From assembly GCA_945859975.1 (NCBI GenBank), contig CAMAPH010000007.1:1-64000 (forward strand): a stretch of 64,000 bases of DNA. The letters run 5' to 3'. Positions 3,001 to 9,000 of this stretch are shown here, piece by piece (position 1 is the stretch's first letter; every line of letters starts with the position of its first letter). Position numbers: made by a program. The DNA comes from Chthonomonas calidirosea. GTDB taxonomy: Bacteria > Armatimonadota > Fimbriimonadia > Fimbriimonadales > Fimbriimonadaceae.

Positions 3001-6000
3001 TCCGCACCGTCCCCGCCGCCGACATGGCTGTGGGTGTCTACAAGGCCGGGGATCAGGACTTTTCCGTTCAGATCCACCCGCTTGGCATCGGCGGGGATGG
3101 TCACAGAGCCTGCCGCGCCGACGGACTCGATCTTGTTCCCTCGGATGACGAGGACTCCGCGTTCGATTTTGGGACCAGAGACCGGATAGATGACCGCGTT
3201 TTCGTACACGGTCACCGGCTCGGTTTGTGGCGCAAGCAGGCAAAGTCCTGCCGCGAGGGCAAATAGCATGGCCCTATTATCTCCAATGAACGGTCCTGAC
3301 TGAGGCTTGCCAAGTGGAACGGCCCAATCAAACCTTGAGATTCACAAACTTCGAGAAGCTGGACATATTACGTTTGACTAGTCTTAATGCACACTCGTAA
3401 ATAGTTTGTTGTGCAATATGCTCATGAACTCGGACAAAACTTGAAGTGATTAAATGTACTGGACGTTTTCAACATTTCGATTCGTTCATCGAAATCTTAA
3501 AAATTCTGATCAATAGAACAAACACGGAACCATAAGACTATTAGTTGAATAGTCTCACCCGGCAATTTTGCTAAAACATCGGATAATCCGGGTTTGAGAT
3601 TGAAAGCTAGATAGCCCCTTGATATAATCGCGACATGGGTTTACTCTCTATCGCCGGTCTACTCGCTGTTGCATCCACGGCAGTCCCGACAGGAAACGCA
3701 GGTTTGCTCGCAGTGCAAGCTCAAACACACCTATCCGGGGCCTTCCAATGGACAGAAGGCGTCTTGTTAACGGATGTTGTTCCAAAGTCGACGGTCCAGG
3801 AAATTTCGGTCAAAGTTGGAACGAACACTTTTAAGTTCACTGGCATTTTCGCTAGCTCGAACTCCGCCCGAGCCGGTGCCGCCGTGCGTGTTCTCCGCTC
3901 TGGCTCAATTCCGATGCGGGTGCCAGTATCCACCGGAGTTTTGAGCGTCAGTGGGTACACGTTTAGCTATCAGATTCCCGCCGACAAAACCACGGGAGCT
4001 ATCTCAACGAACGTCCTGATTCCATACTCATACGATAGTATTCCTACGATTTCAATTCACTATCCGGCTTTTAACCTGATTGGATACTCCATGGTCAACG
4101 GCGGTCTGGTCCGTCTTGCGACTAATCCAATCCGCTACGAGTTCGAGATTCCGACCGCTGCTAAGCGAAAGACCGAAGGGATTCTTGTAAAGACGTCTGG
4201 GCGCTACTCCCAGGCCGTGCTACAAACGGACAGCAACGCAGCCGAGGGCCTCGGCTTCTTCTCCACAGGAGAAGGTACGACGCTTCGCCTTGCCCCAACC
4301 AGTTGGGGAACGGTTGGCAGAAACATCACCTCGTTCGAGCTAAATCTGTAAACAGACAGCGGACCGGTCCAGCAAACTGGACCGGTCCGATCTCTTACTT
4401 CTGAACTCGCAACGGACCGGAATCCGAGCCTGGAGCAAGTTTCAGACCTACCCTCTCGTACCCGCGTTTGATGGCGGGGTGGCTCATGGTGAGTTTGTGA
4501 ATGAGCCCAGTGCGGTGTGCTTCGATGCCGAGCATCATCATGCCGAGGTCGATGCCGATGACGTCGAGGCCGATCCAGTTTTGGTTCGGGTTGTAGCCAT
4601 TCGGAAAGCCATACTTGCCCCACGCGGCAGGGTGGTTTTTGCGCATGGCTTCGGCAAAAGCTAGTGATTCTTTCGGCGTGAAAGGCATGCTCGCTACGGC
4701 TGAAGTCGGGGTGATGGTTCCGTTGTCGTCGATCCAGCCGGGTGCGCCGAAGGCGTTGTAGCCGCCAGGGTGGTCGCAGGCGCTGAGGCCCCAGAAATCG
4801 GCTCCGTAGCCCTTAAAGTTCTTCGGATTATCGATGCAGTATTGGCGGTTGGCCAAAGTGGCGTTCTTCGTGTTGACGAAGTAGTTGACACCCAGCTTGT
4901 CTCGCATGCCTTTAAAGCTGAAGAAGCCTTCCGACATTTGGTGGATGAAGAGCGGGCCACCGGTGATGAACTCGATGCCTTTGTAGTTTTCGTACTTGCG
5001 TCCGATCGTTTCCCACCCGTCGGTCCGGATGTCGCTGAGGCCGCCGCCCATGATGTACAGCATTTTCTCTTCGCTGTACTGCGCGGACCATCGACCGCCA
5101 AGGAAGCCTTCCTCGGGTTTCCAACCGTGGCCAATGAGCGTTTCGTTCGGCTTTTTGCCGCCATCGGTAAGCGCCCACTTCCAATCAATTCGCTTCCAAA
5201 ACCTTTCGGAAAGTTGGGTGATCTCCTTGTCCTTCCAATAGCGTTCCGCGGCAAAAACTCCGGCCAAAAGAATGGCGGTGTCGATGGTGCTTGCTTCGCA
5301 CTTCCAAACTCGCTTGCCGGTTTCCCAGTCGATGAAATGGTAGAGCCATCCGTGCTCACCTTCGACGAGGTCATTGATCGACTTGAGCGTCGTGACGGTG
5401 CGCTTTTTGGCATCCGCACGGTCGATCCATTTGCGCTCGGTCCCGATGACGTAGGCGGTTAGAGCAAAGCCCGTTGAAGCGGCACTGGCGACGGTGTAGG
5501 TGTCTCCGCCAGGGCGATTCGCAGCTCGATCCTTGGTGAGCCCGGTTTTGGGATGAGAATGCTCAACGAAGAAATCAAAAGCTCGGCGCTGGAGGTCGTC
5601 AATGAGCGCGGGACCCGTGGCGGTTTGCGGCATGGCAGCTGCGGCGATGAGGGAAAGGCTTACAGAGGTCACAGGGGGTTCATCCATGGAAAACGGTTCC
5701 CCGATGAAATCACCGGGGAACTAAGAGTGGACAGAGGGCAGAAACGAAGAGTTAGTTTCCGCCCTTTTGGACGCCAGGGCCAGCAGACATGCTGCTTGCC
5801 GATCCGCTTGGTCCGGCAAGTCCGCCAGCCTGAAGCATGGACCAAGCCCGCTTCGCGTCGGCCTCGTTTCCTTTATAAATCTTGAGAATTTCGGCTTTCT
5901 CGTCAGGGGTCATCTTATCGAAGTTGCCGCCGACCTTATCGAAAGTGGAGCGAAGGAGTTTAGCTTGCTCCATTCGGTTCTCTTCTACCTTCGCATCTGG

Positions 6001-9000
6001 ACCGCCCCCGTCATCGCATCCGATGACCGCGAAGATGGCTAGAAAAATTAGAAAGTGTTTCATGGGTTTTGGGTTGGGTCGCCGAGACTACTCTCGGCGA
6101 CCCGGTCATTCTCAGCGGAACTGAGCTGGAAGGGTGCGGCAGTAGCTGTTCATCCAGCTATTTGCGCCGTCGCCGCCAGCAGCGGCTCGAGCGTTTTCGC
6201 CCATGTTCCAGTTGTCAAAGTTCGGCGAACCGACGGGCTGGTTGATGAAGTTCTTTCCGCAGGTCTCGGAGTGGCTCATGCGCTTGGCGTGGCCGTCCCA
6301 ATATGCAGCGACGAAGGCCTTGTTGCCCCACTTTTCAGAGCCCCAGTTCCAGCGCGTGCCGGTGACTGGAGGAACTGGAAGCCAGGAGAAGTCCGCGTCA
6401 ACGTTCTCGCCCCATGCCCAGTAAGTGCCCATGTCCGACCAGACGGCCTTGTGCTCAACGATTGCGAAAACGTTGGCTGGTTCGCTGAACGAAGTCAACG
6501 AGATTGCCTGGCCGTCTGCAAACCAGCTTGATCCCCAAATGTTGGCGAGCACGTAGCCGCGTCGGAATCGAAGATTCTCTGGCAGGTTAAGGGTTGCCCA
6601 ACCGAAGACTGCTCGGAGAGCAGGGTCGGAGTGGAAGTCTGGGTACTTCGAGATGGTATTTACAGGGTCGGTGAAGAGCTGAGTGTTCTTCACGTATGGA
6701 GCAATAAGCTGCTTCCAGGAGTACTCGTCACCGTTGGTGAACGCGTTTCGGATGACTCGGTTGTCATCGAAGTCGCCAGAGTAAAGGAAGTTTGCAGTTC
6801 CAAGCTGCTTCATGCTGCTCAGCGACTGGGTCTGCTTTGCGGCGGCCTTCGCCTGAGCGAAAACGGGGAACAGGATTGCGGCAAGAATCGCGATGATTGC
6901 GATAACGACGAGAAGTTCAATGAGCGTAAATGCTCTTCGTGTTGTATTCATAAATGGCCTCTTCATTGAGTGGGAAGATTGCTGTAGGGCGCGGTTGAAG
7001 CGCGAACGTCGAGTTGAGGAGGAAAAACAATTTGCTCTAGGTCGGGCGTTCTGCCTCTCATGACCTCGGTGAGCATTCGGGTGGCATTGCGGGCCATCGT
7101 TGTGATCGGCTGACGCACGCTGGTGAGCGGAGGGGAAACGCGATCGCAAGCCGGAGTGCTGTCGAAACCGACGATGGACACATCTTTGGGTACGGACAGC
7201 CCCATTTGGTGCACGAGCGTGATGCACTGGAAGGCAACGTCGTCGGACCAAACGAACAGCGCGGTCGGGCGATCTGGCCCAGCCATTAGCCGCTTTAGCC
7301 GTTCCGGCTCGTTGAGAGGGGCAAACATCTTGATCACGTTTCCGGTGGGAATCTCCAGCCCGGCGGCTCGAACGGTGTTCAAGAAGCCGTTCTTTCGGTC
7401 GGTCGCGTCGACCGAAAGTTCTGAACCTGCGATGACGGCGAAGCGGCGGTGGCCGAGGGAAAGCAGGTGTTGGGCAGCGAGTCTGCCGCCAGAGTAGTTA
7501 TCCGTATCCACGTACGGAATTCCTGGTTCTTCCGGCCGGCTAAAGAAGCTGACGATCGGGAATCTCCGCTCCTTGAGCTCTTTTATGAGCGGGTCACCGG
7601 CGTCGCGCAGAATCAAAGCACCGTCGACGCGTCCGCTGGCGAGATAGTTTGCGTCCGCTTCCATGCTCTCGGCGGCCTTGGTGTGGAGCATGACGTCGAC
7701 GCCTTGCACGACCCCCTCTTCGCAAACGCCGCGAAGAACTTCGGGAATAAAGCTGGAGGTTGACGCAAAGTAATCAACGCCTTGGAAGACAACGGCAATC
7801 GTGTTCGTCTTCTGAGTTGCGAGCATCTGCCCGACCACATTCGGCGTGTAGTTCATCGACTTCGCAGTGTCAATAATCTTTTGCGAAGTCGCGGCCGATA
7901 TGCCACGTTCACGCGCCCGCCCATTGAGAACGTAACTAACCGTTACCTTCCCGACGCCCGCTTGTTTAGCCACATCGCCAATCGTAGTTCGTCGCACCAT
8001 TGCTGAACCGGTTCACCTATGATATCCGATTGGGGGAAAAGGTTCAAGAGTCAGTGAAATTTTTCCTCAGAATTCGCTAGCTGCCAGCAATAGTGCCAGT
8101 ATCGGACGAGCATGAACAAGCTCCCGTTTGCTCCCCGATTTTCGCCTGATTTAGGTTCAAAGTGGACGACAACATGAGTCGGGCTTGGCCAACTTCGTCT
8201 ATCCGGGTTACCACCTTGAAATCTAGTGAACCGGTTCACTAATGAACCGCCTCAAAGGGCGGTTTCCACAATAATCCCTGCTAGCTTTTCTAAATCCGAG
8301 ATCAACACCCGCTCGTCAATCCCGTGCATGGCGACCGGAACCAGCCCAAACTCAATCGTCTCAATCCCCTCCGCCACAAAATGCCGGGCGTCGCTGGTGC
8401 CGCCGCCGGTGCTGAGATTGGTTTCGATTCCGGTGACGGACCGGATACCCCTTGCCACGTTCTCGGCCAAGGCACCCGGGGGCGAGAGGAACGGAACCGC
8501 GCTGGCGTTCCAAACCGCATCGAATCGCACGCCGTGCTTCGCAAAGATCGCCTCGGTCCGCTGTATTAGAACATCGGCCGGAGAAGCTGGTCCGTTGCGG
8601 AAATTGAGGCCGACGAAGGCTTCGCCAGGGATCACGTTCGAGGCACCGGCGCCGGAGCGGAGTTCCCAGACTTGCATGCTCGTCGGCGGGAAGAAGTCAT
8701 CGCCCTCGTCCCAACGCTCCGAGACGAGCTCGGACAGAGTGGGAGCCAGCACGTGCGCCGCATTCTCGGCAAGGTGAGCATAGGCGACATGCCCCTGAAC
8801 GCCTTGGACCGTTATGCGGCCGGTGAGCGATCCTCGCCGGCCGGGCTTGCAGGTGTCCCCGAGCACCGAAACCGAGGTCGGTTCGGCCACGAGCGCGCTC
8901 TGAATCACTTCCCCGCGTTCCAGCAGGAATCGCAGCGCGCGGACCGTTCCGTCGTCGGCTTTCGCTTCTTCGTCGCTGGTGAGCAACAGCGCCAGCCCAT

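Follow-up and report, generated by a model that had tools for sequence, protein, structure and literature searches.

A predicted beta-1,2-glucan operon of the Armatimonadota links a pilin-like protein and a small lipoprotein to a GH144 enzyme

Of the unexplained gene expansions in the Planctomycetota, Verrucomicrobiota and Armatimonadota, those of pilin-like proteins of the DUF1559 type rank with the largest. Such bacteria have few or no TonB receptors, which raises the question of how polysaccharides pass their outer membrane. In competence pili the minor pilin ComP binds a polymer, and retraction of the pilus draws the polymer to the secretin. PulG-like expansions of N_methyl plus SBP_bac_10 proteins have a prepilin motif and comprise dozens of paralogs scattered over the genome, in many cases next to genes for lipoproteins or signal-peptide proteins (PMC8567305), and 79 PulG-type genes are reported for a Fimbriimonas genome (PMC4072686). 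SusC/SusD genes cluster with GH144 in Bacteroidota (PMC11739564), pilus genes of Akkermansia are reported to be needed for mucin accumulation (PMC12418764, PMC13174399), and an alginate cluster of Verruconatronum that is upregulated on alginate holds a PulG-like pseudopilin with 67 homologs (PMC13274419).

The window, i.e. the whole stretch of 64,000 nucleotides of Chthonomonas calidirosea DNA that was analysed, contains on the minus strand four genes that are predicted to form a beta-1,2-glucan operon in the order LacI, pilin, lipoprotein and GH144. The survey's finding had named the first three, which were confirmed with their exact coordinates, but had overlooked the fourth, which lies directly downstream (5687-4395). 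The LacI-family repressor (345 aa, PF00356 and PF13377) is encoded at 6963..8000, the type IV pilin-like protein (279 aa, N_methyl, DUF1559-like) at 6112..6951, the small lipoprotein (103 aa, lipobox VIG/C, Cys16) at 5752..6063 and the GH144 endo-beta-1,2-glucanase homolog (430 aa, PF10091 with E 4e-60) at 4395..5687.

The operon is delimited by two LacI-type operators and a terminator. The distal operator is a perfect 16-bp palindrome at 8225..8240 with the core TGAACCGGTTCA at 8227-8238, and the proximal one has the same core at 8004..8015, between a promoter-like site and the LacI start; neither is assigned to a strand. Three exact copies of this 12-mer occur in the genome where 0.17 would be expected, and two of them are at the operon. 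The candidate sigma-70-like promoter (TTGAAC-17-TATCAT, 8019..8047, minus strand) is a consensus match only, at 9 of 12 positions, and is weak when taken alone, with 3 sites found against 1.3 ± 1.2 in shuffles. An intrinsic terminator with a 13-pair stem (4360..4389, minus strand) ends the operon, and an 11-pair hairpin with a T-run between lipoprotein and GH144 (5696..5721, minus strand) may step down the read-through. A LacI homolog was found in 40 of the 58 related GH144 loci. Of 40 related loci, 16 have a relaxed operator motif at the gene that opens the cassette, with 0.6 expected; where that gene is the lipoprotein, it is 12 of 15 loci. A regulator is thus found together with CAZymes for a single glycan, namely LacI, the operators and GH144 in this locus and GH94, GH1 and ABC genes in relatives. 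Contigs of about 92% identity were found in three lake metatranscriptome assemblies and two of them bridge pilin and lipoprotein, which shows neither a single transcript nor an expression level and carries no weight here.

The product of 5687-4395 is a predicted member of the GH144 beta-1,2-glucanase family. It scored 203 bits with PF10091 and matched the structures 8xul (E 1.5e-63) and 5gzh (E 3e-41). Its residues E206, F247 and Y310 align with E239, F286 and Y367 of XcSGL, the three clan-defining residues (PMC12102758), assuming a numbering offset of 14 residues in the PDB chain. A signal peptide is probable as judged by eye. For the one cassette-linked GH94 protein tested, the best match was cyclic beta-1,2-glucan synthase in its phosphorylase region (E 3e-131), compared with E 6e-86 for cellobiose phosphorylase. 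ABC genes were present in 7 of the 58 related loci, and these systems carry binding domains of their own.

The coupling of the pilin to the enzyme was followed with a clade profile trained on GH144-adjacent pilins. With no more than 25 candidates scored per genome, so that some absences may be misses, the glucan-linked head was found in 52 of the 121 genomes of the order; all 52 are among the 59 GH144-positive genomes and none among the 62 others, counts that come from related and not independent genomes. A held-out set of 20 loci outside the order was picked on the pilin score alone. GH144 was adjacent in 18 of these and two genes on in another one, and the remaining locus (L156) had GH94. 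The clade is single-copy, is kept beside GH144 in six families outside the order and occurs only with GH144, even within genera; in two loci (L129, L130) it retains LacI and the partner though GH144 lies elsewhere. A second pilin clade adjoins GH13 in 30 of 30 loci, and a third adjoins GH43 or GH51 in 15 of 30 loci and any arabinan-locus homolog in 24 of 30. The pilin head marks a substrate-linked clade tied to GH144/GH94 across the phylum, and each of the three clades tested follows one enzyme class.

The pilin (6951-6112) starts with the class III signal RRA/FTLIELL, which comprises a basic leader, a small residue (Ala) at −1, Phe1, Glu5 and a hydrophobic alpha-1 helix. PF07963 (N_methyl) was matched with 33.3 bits against a cut-off of 21.2 and TIGR02532 also above its cut-off, whereas PF07596 (SBP_bac_10/DUF1559) reached 15.2 bits (E 0.022), below the cut-off of 23.3, and the GspG profile TIGR01710 scored far below its cut-off. 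Some close homologs are labelled DUF1559 and Atlas features matched DUF1559-like clusters at 0.96, which makes the protein a distant DUF1559/SBP_bac_10 (PF07596) relative. An HMM search returned 610 representatives at E<=0.001, given with neither names nor gene context. Across the 53 paralogs of the genome F1, L3, E5, P22 and Y50 are invariant, and just 29 pairs of heads align over 120 residues, mostly with less than 43% identity. The usual pilin residue at −1 is Gly; here it is Ala in 43 of the 53. The head of the glucan-linked clade has an invariant Cys231/Cys271 pair as well as conserved Trp/Tyr, Asp, Glu and Arg residues. Its model (pLDDT 96) has a predicted type IV pilin core: type IV pilins or pseudopilins made up 23 of the 29 structural matches with Z>=2, the best being 4lw9 (Z 4.3, rmsd 3.2, 93 aligned), with ComP (5hz7; Z 3.8, rmsd 4.0, 101 aligned) also among them, all at low Z values of 4.3 or less. 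No solute-binding protein or SusD chain was among the matches listed, which does not exclude such folds, and no sugar-binding fold or pocket was identified in the head. Foldseek gave nothing significant with either the pilin or the lipoprotein model, and in the full-length search with VIA the N-terminal helix was dominant.

The lipoprotein (6063-5752) has a conserved core of about 50 residues and a Gly/Pro-rich tail, and belongs to a family in which the GC of the lipobox is kept in at least 90% of 24 homologs. It has a predicted signal peptide II with an invariant cysteine and matched no Pfam, NCBIfam or Atlas family (best score 0.76). Low complexity, as the survey's finding had put it, falls short of describing this 103-residue protein with its conserved core, although short, polar paralogs are numerous in the genome. 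A fixed two-gene unit of pilin and lipoprotein was not borne out either: the partner gene may follow the pilin, lie between LacI and pilin, precede LacI or be divergent, and a one-helix membrane peptide replaces the lipoprotein in 17 of 44 loci. One or the other was present in 42 of the 44, and in 8 of the 20 held-out loci no small partner was detected.

Genome-wide pairing was counted with independent gene calls and a regular-expression lipobox. There are 53 pilins of the family, 49 of which have a downstream gene, and 42 small lipoproteins in all. The frequent pairing noted before lies far above chance, as a lipoprotein of less than 150 aa directly follows on the same strand in 19 of 49 cases compared with 4 of 2203 other genes (Fisher p 4e-30). 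Seven pilin genes are indeed directly behind a regulator (five LacI, one GntR-type, one ArsR-type). Codon usage like that of highly expressed genes was also recovered, albeit weakly, since 23 of 46 pilins reach or border on the highest decile when codon adaptation is scored roughly, against a reference of 18 genes that includes non-ribosomal ones. That the pilins stand in carbohydrate loci holds for the regulator-led sugar loci, but many others have phosphate, sulfate, muropeptide or housekeeping neighbours.

The genome encodes BamA and, judged by its genes, a diderm envelope. In agreement with the survey's finding no TonB receptor (PF00593) was found in this 95.8%-complete genome, and MotA/ExbB was likewise not found in it. 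Between one and three TonB receptors occur in 48 of the 121 genomes of the order, and 13 of the 14 cassette carriers of family f4 have one, G068 being the exception. Among the recurrent families of the 58 related loci no SusC/SusD-type gene was recognised.

A pilus assembly machine with ATPase, platform, peptidase and secretin is encoded in the genome. The type IVa cluster on contig C13 contains PilB, a PilT-type ATPase, PilC, a prepilin peptidase, PilM, neighbours in the PilNOP positions, an N-terminal fragment of a secretin and giant minor pilins. All 52 cassette carriers are among the 114 of 121 genomes in which its minor pilin was matched. Two relatives of 1.5 Mb without this match have 4 weak pilin matches each, and two drafts (G062, G096) have 62 and 25 pilin matches despite lacking it. 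The retractile pilus machine is near-universal in the order and the type II secretion system (T2SS) is not. A T2SS cluster with GspE, F, G, I-like, J, K, a PilN-domain protein and a secretin lies in the window at 38931..50056 on the plus strand; as a host machine it is disfavoured by its presence in 65 of 121 genomes, as is the pilus on contig C6, found in 12 of 121 with one 65-aa piece as the query. GspG was not found in 20 of the 52 cassette genomes, two single-contig ones included, which together with the TIGR01710 score speaks against the pilin being a T2SS pseudopilin. Since a short pilin is missing from the conserved C13 cluster, the paralogs were considered as its obligatory major pilin. 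This is weakened by the complete relatives G021 and G102, which have two short conventional pilins each (102-112 residues) outside the C13 cluster; because of these the family need not build the filament.

We propose, at even chances, that the operon is a beta-1,2-glucan polysaccharide utilization locus built around a pilin instead of SusC/SusD, and that exchangeable glycan-binding pilins feed periplasmic enzymes; binding and transport are the steps that we infer. Glucan oligomers would release LacI. The prepilin would be cleaved and its near-invariant alpha-1 helix would permit it to enter a shared pilus, in which it would be an exchangeable subunit, probably a minor one or one at the tip. 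Its variable head would bind beta-1,2-glucan. Retraction would pull the glycan up to the secretin and through it, GH144 would cut it in the periplasm, and an ABC transporter would import the oligomers for GH94 and GH1 to finish. The lipoprotein may serve the pilin as its cognate tether or as a chaperone, stabilising it or passing the glycan on, and the about 50 paralogs would supply a single machine with a set of capture subunits, each specific to a substrate. In favour of this are the coupling of clades to enzymes, the pilin core of the model, the conserved alpha-1 helix beside divergent heads, the envelope in which neither TonB receptor nor ExbB was found, the wide occurrence of the C13 minor pilin and the alginate and Akkermansia precedents. 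Against it count the low Z values, Ala at −1, the short conventional pilins, the pilin matches in G062 and G096, the TonB receptors of the f4 carriers, the 8 held-out loci in which no partner was detected and the many paralogs without a sugar neighbour. Tentatively, and with some doubt, this may extend to the Armatimonadota and further to PVC bacteria with DUF1559 expansions, as a TonB-independent, ATP-driven import of polysaccharides and other nutrients by retractile pili with dozens of exchangeable substrate-specific pilins, each co-induced with its enzymes and a cognate tethered peptide.

An unlikely alternative is that the pilin is an adhesin only and holds the cell on particles that bear glucan or on producer cells, while GH144 acts outside and the oligomers enter via an unrelated porin. 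It predicts the same clade-enzyme coupling, and the 79 Fimbriimonas genes were read as attachment fimbriae (PMC4072686) and Akkermansia MUL2 as attachment (PMC13174399). A T2SS that might export GH144 exists in the genome, but the 20 cassette genomes in which GspG was not found count against this route, no porin gene was recognised among the annotated recurrent cassette families, and a cognate membrane-tethered partner would be unneeded for adhesion alone. The prepilin helix could also be a plain inner-membrane anchor of a periplasmic binding or sensing protein that, with its partner, passes oligomers to the ABC transporter and does not polymerise. The one-helix partner in 17 of 44 loci implies such a location, ABC genes occur in 7 of 58 loci and the head of 220 residues is large for a filament subunit. 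We consider this improbable: near-invariance of about 28 residues across the 53 paralogs, E5 and P22 among them, is more than a plain anchor would preserve, the ABC systems have their own binding domains, and the head matched pilins and no solute-binding protein among the structural matches. Planctomycete N_methyl plus SBP_bac_10 proteins were partly in an SDS-only fraction, unlike ordinary pilins (PMC8567305), which also counts against it.

Less probable still is a secretion adaptor, with each pilin recognising the enzyme encoded next to it and loading it for export through the secretin of the type II system or the type IV pilus. An enzyme with a signal peptide directly follows the pilin in most loci, and T2SS export of alginate lyases was proposed for a similar case (PMC13274419). 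However, GspG was not found in the same 20 of 52 genomes, with the two single-contig ones, and LacI and partner are kept where GH144 lies elsewhere (L129, L130) or GH94 is the neighbour (L156); export may also go through the type IVa machine. Finally, dispersed paralogs serving antigenic or phage-receptor variation might have landed in a sugar operon by hitch-hiking, as would fit the divergence of the about 50 paralogs and the housekeeping surroundings of many of them. For the glucan-linked clade this is largely refuted and highly improbable, since it is single-copy, occurs only with GH144 even within genera and stays next to it in six families outside the order, and the operator tracks the partner gene through rearrangement.

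Little-studied bacteria may thus catch polysaccharides with pili. The locus merges the questions of the pilin expansions and of polysaccharide passage, and offers a ligand (beta-1,2-glucan) and an enzyme that can both be named, an operator, and two more clades paired with substrates. Should import by retractile pili hold in the wider sense proposed above, it would stand next to SusCD/TonB receptors and porins as a third way for glycans to cross the outer membrane, and the pilin clade would predict the substrate. If the reading of the locus holds, pilin clades could serve as markers for the diet of uncultured lineages and as a new source of glycan-binding proteins.

Compared with the PulG-like DUF1559 expansions of the Planctomycetota, Verrucomicrobiota and Armatimonadota, the pilin shares the prepilin motif and the many scattered paralogs but is below the PF07596 cut-off, and the available portions of the published accounts describe no substrate-specific clades, cognate partners or CAZyme coupling. 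With the SusC/SusD loci of Bacteroidota the operon shares a regulator, two envelope genes and GH144 in one locus, and the many parallel loci per genome, one for each substrate. The survey's finding that the pair stands where SusC/SusD stand holds for the slot in the locus, but the analogy is positional, as no likeness in sequence or in fold was found. No beta-barrel, TonB or ExbB was found here, the two envelope genes encode a pilin and a tethered peptide of 50-110 aa, and the regulators are cytoplasmic LacI, GntR or ArsR types. Akkermansia MUL2 likewise has pilus-related genes for glycan accumulation in a diderm but is one locus with PilM and an archaeal-like pilin and not an enzyme-coupled paralog repertoire. 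The Verruconatronum alginate cluster, from another phylum, has a pseudopilin with many homologs within a polysaccharide-induced cluster; its authors suggest enzyme export by a T2SS and assign import to TonB, and the available part of their report describes neither a clade-substrate rule nor a small partner (PMC13274419). The proposed mechanism resembles that of ComP, itself among the structural matches of the head, with a substrate-binding minor pilin and retraction. It would differ in having a glycan as substrate, a head of roughly double the size and dozens of specificities.

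The three minus-strand genes described in the survey's finding were recovered at the same coordinates: a LacI gene (8000-6963), a gene for a pilin-like N_methyl protein of 279 amino acids (6951-6112) and a gene for a lipoprotein of 103 amino acids (6063-5752). The run continues on the same strand with a fourth gene, GH144 (5687-4395; PF10091, E 4e-60), from which the lipoprotein gene is separated by a hairpin, and is closed by a 13-pair terminator at 4389-4360. The palindrome TGAACCGGTTCA occurs in three exact copies in the genome (0.17 expected), two of them upstream of LacI. 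A relaxed form stands at the gene that opens the cassette in 16 of 40 related loci, where 0.6 would be expected; these include 12 of the 15 loci in which the lipoprotein gene is shifted ahead of LacI. The third exact copy, at G000:C29:2502 (contig C29 of the genome under study, G000), lies between a sigma-factor-like gene and a gene for a 331-aa lipoprotein; no link of this copy to the cassette was found. The flanks (window 806-3269 and 8252-14016) look ordinary and contain an amidohydrolase pair, an M20 peptidase with dapD/dapC-like genes and groES-groEL, the last names being assigned by eye. The genome itself most likely belongs to the Fimbriimonadaceae (Armatimonadota), the family to which one source assigns a homolog of 85% identity.

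The closest solved relatives of the GH144 protein are XCC2207 (8xul, E 1.5e-63) and an endo-beta-1,2-glucanase (5gzh, E 3e-41). The clan-defining residues of the Xanthomonas GH144 enzyme are, according to PMC12102758, E239, F286 and Y367. E206, F247 and Y310 align to these when an offset of 14 in the PDB chain is assumed, which suits all three residues. GH144 was detected in 59 of the 121 genomes of the order. The loci of 58 relatives with GH144 contained a pilin-like gene (44), LacI (40), GH94 (14) or an ABC binding-permease fusion (7). The one GH94 protein tested matched best to the phosphorylase region of cyclic beta-1,2-glucan synthase (E 3e-131 vs 6e-86 for cellobiose phosphorylase). An unannotated secreted protein of ~290 aa, possibly a surface glycan-binding protein, accompanies the cassette in 14 of the 58 loci (L046, L048, L052, L055, L056, L061 and others) and in L130, L131, L136 and L144-L146; it was not found in G000. 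FAD-dependent halogenase-like proteins (~575 aa) recur next to pilin-like genes and within GH144 loci (G000:C4:68881, C32:28363; L036, L037, L040, L132-L134).

The link of the pilin to this substrate was analysed with a profile built from 36 pilin heads alone. It matched 52 of the 121 genomes, nearly always once per genome. All 52 carry GH144, and the 62 genomes where GH144 was not found gave no match, in a comparison where the profile was trained on the GH144 loci themselves, at most 25 candidates were scored per genome and related genomes are not independent. Seven GH144 genomes had no match, four of these being fragmented. From 52 matching genomes outside the order, 20 loci of six families served as a held-out test; pilin score was the sole criterion of choice, with 10 loci scoring strongly and 10 more weakly. 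GH144 was the next gene in 18 and lay two genes further in one, and GH94 was next in one. In L129 and L130, where GH144 is elsewhere in the genome, the pilin was still accompanied by LacI and the partner. On genomic grounds, a role of some kind for the pilin in beta-1,2-glucan use is nearly certain.

AlphaFold2 models reached a pLDDT of 90.8 for the whole pilin and 96.2 for its head alone. Type IV pilins or pseudopilins made up 23 of the 29 chains that matched the head model at Z>=2, and EpsG scored best (Z 4.3, rmsd 3.2, 93 aligned). These scores are low but consistent, and the model suggests that roughly 150 residues have been added to a pilin core. In the 53 paralogs compared, residues 1-28 of the mature protein hardly vary and the heads diverge. 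Conserved residues in the heads of the clade include several Trp/Tyr, Asp, Glu and Arg as well as a pair of Cys, as would be expected of a glycan site.

The pairing of pilins with small lipoproteins was borne out. A same-strand lipoprotein <150 aa follows 19 of 49 family pilins vs 4 of 2203 other genes, counted with our own gene calls, a regular-expression lipobox and only pilins with a downstream gene; seven pilin genes stand directly behind a LacI-, GntR- or ArsR-type regulator, as had been reported. The proposed two-gene module keeps its small membrane-tethered partner but neither its fixed gene order nor its lipoprotein anchor. Among 44 pilin loci, the partner belonged to the window lipoprotein family in 25, was a one-helix peptide instead in 17 (~60-95 aa, single N-terminal membrane helix, Pro/Gly tail) and neither in two; the held-out loci had three lipoproteins, nine one-helix peptides and eight with none detected. 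One-helix peptides also follow the pilin-like genes at G000:C2:36089 and C14:15160, and counting lipoproteins alone therefore gives too low a figure for the partner rule. In 23 aligned homologs of the window lipoprotein the lipobox, G46, D55 and W74 are conserved; a linker is followed by a core that looks helical by residue pattern and a Gly/Pro tail.

The clade-substrate rule generalises beyond the beta-1,2-glucan pilin. Among the 30 best loci of a second paralog (C8), GH13 lay within 1.5 kb in all 30 and a small lipoprotein followed the pilin in 27. For a third (C44), GH43 or GH51 was found in 15 of the 30 best loci, any arabinan-locus homolog in 24 and a small lipoprotein in 25. GH144 occurred in 0 of these 60 loci, each set including the genome's own locus. 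The window lipoprotein profile gave just four marginal matches there (E about 1e-3), which argues that the partners are cognate. When 202 pilin neighbours of at least 110 aa were scanned against Pfam, the matches included sugar-type genes (GH13, GH44, GH30, GH43/GH51 with an ABC system, GH95, GH9) and also phytase, phosphoesterases, genes of sulfate activation, NamZ and numerous housekeeping functions. A visible link to sugars is therefore limited to part of the family, and the carbohydrate setting reported earlier holds for that part but not for the many pilins with non-sugar neighbours. Phytase, beta-propeller phosphoesterase, glycerophosphodiesterase and sulfate-activation genes adjoin pilin-like genes on G000:C4, C24, C64, C32 and C1, hinting at non-sugar nutrient capture. 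At G000:C3:118229-123464 (L093) the gene for the exo-N-acetylmuramidase NamZ is followed directly by three tandem pilin-lipoprotein pairs, in what may be a cassette for scavenging peptidoglycan.

The genome encodes BamA and, as the survey had noted, no TonB receptor was found in it; ExbB was sought there and not found. TonB receptors are present in 48 of the order's 121 genomes, at 1-3 each, which is few beside the dozens of pilins that a genome carries (two complete genomes have 47-54 N_methyl matches). Three secretins and several pilus ATPases are present. A type IVa pilus cluster (G000:C13:32588-63473; L157, L158) encodes PilB, a PilT-type ATPase, PilC, prepilin peptidase, PilM, giant minor pilins of 630, 760 and 1054 aa and secreted proteins of 1587 and 2315 aa almost without Pfam annotation; in G102, a genome of the order, such a cluster continues into a secretin. 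The 1054-aa pilin was found in 114 of 121 genomes, including all 52 cassette carriers and the unpublished G037, which is counted in all 121-genome tallies and as a carrier of neither GH144, the pilin clade nor GspG. G097 and G099, two reduced genomes of 1.5 Mb from the same family, have neither a giant minor pilin match nor GspG and four weak pilin-like matches each; two drafts without the 1054-aa match still have 62 and 25 pilin matches. GspG was detected in 65 of the 121 genomes, and 20 of the 52 carriers gave no GspG match; the C6 short pilin was detected in 12 of 121. Because short conventional pilins are present in G021 and G102, a major role and a minor or tip role are equally likely. 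At G000:C6:52911-57252 (L159), in a separate pilus cluster, eight short pilins stand in tandem and six of them are nearly identical. A tandem array in G102 (L165:10841-17455) consists of five pilin-like genes of ~321 aa, of which four are almost the same, giving the impression that part of the family was amplified to provide bulk subunits. At window 37827-50056, a type II secretion cluster that looks complete has a GH26 gene immediately upstream.

We give about an even chance to a reading in which the pilin, induced by the sugar and specific for one substrate, would join a shared retractile pilus, capture beta-1,2-glucan and deliver it across the outer membrane to GH144, which would act on it in the periplasm; the individual physical steps are ones that we infer. 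Attachment has been suggested for a Fimbriimonas genome with 79 PulG-type genes (PMC4072686), and that the pilin serves adhesion only is rather unlikely. A non-polymerising periplasmic binder is likewise an unlikely role. Enzyme export has been suggested for an alginate-induced cluster holding a pseudopilin with 67 homologs (PMC13274419); that the pilin is a secretion adaptor is improbable here. Mere hitch-hiking of the pilin is very improbable. The cassette thereby offers a plausible path to a new mechanism of uptake, and the named ligand, beta-1,2-glucan, makes it directly testable.

The survey's observation proved real, conserved phylum-wide and more specific than first stated. Expansion of the pilin-like family is already described. 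Searches on the pilin family, pilus-glycan uptake and GH144 loci, judged mostly from listings of largely non-subscription papers and without supplements, gave no description of clade-specific pilin-CAZyme cassettes, a cognate partner or this Armatimonadota locus; the novelty could be affected by the supplements of PMC13274419 and of PMC8567305. Planctomycete N_methyl+SBP_bac_10 genes are dispersed, often with signal-peptide genes alongside (PMC8567305), Akkermansia mucin uptake involves pilus genes (PMC13174399, PMC12418764) and GH144 is contained in a SusC/SusD locus (PMC11739564). The locus described here is a new variant of the polysaccharide utilization locus.
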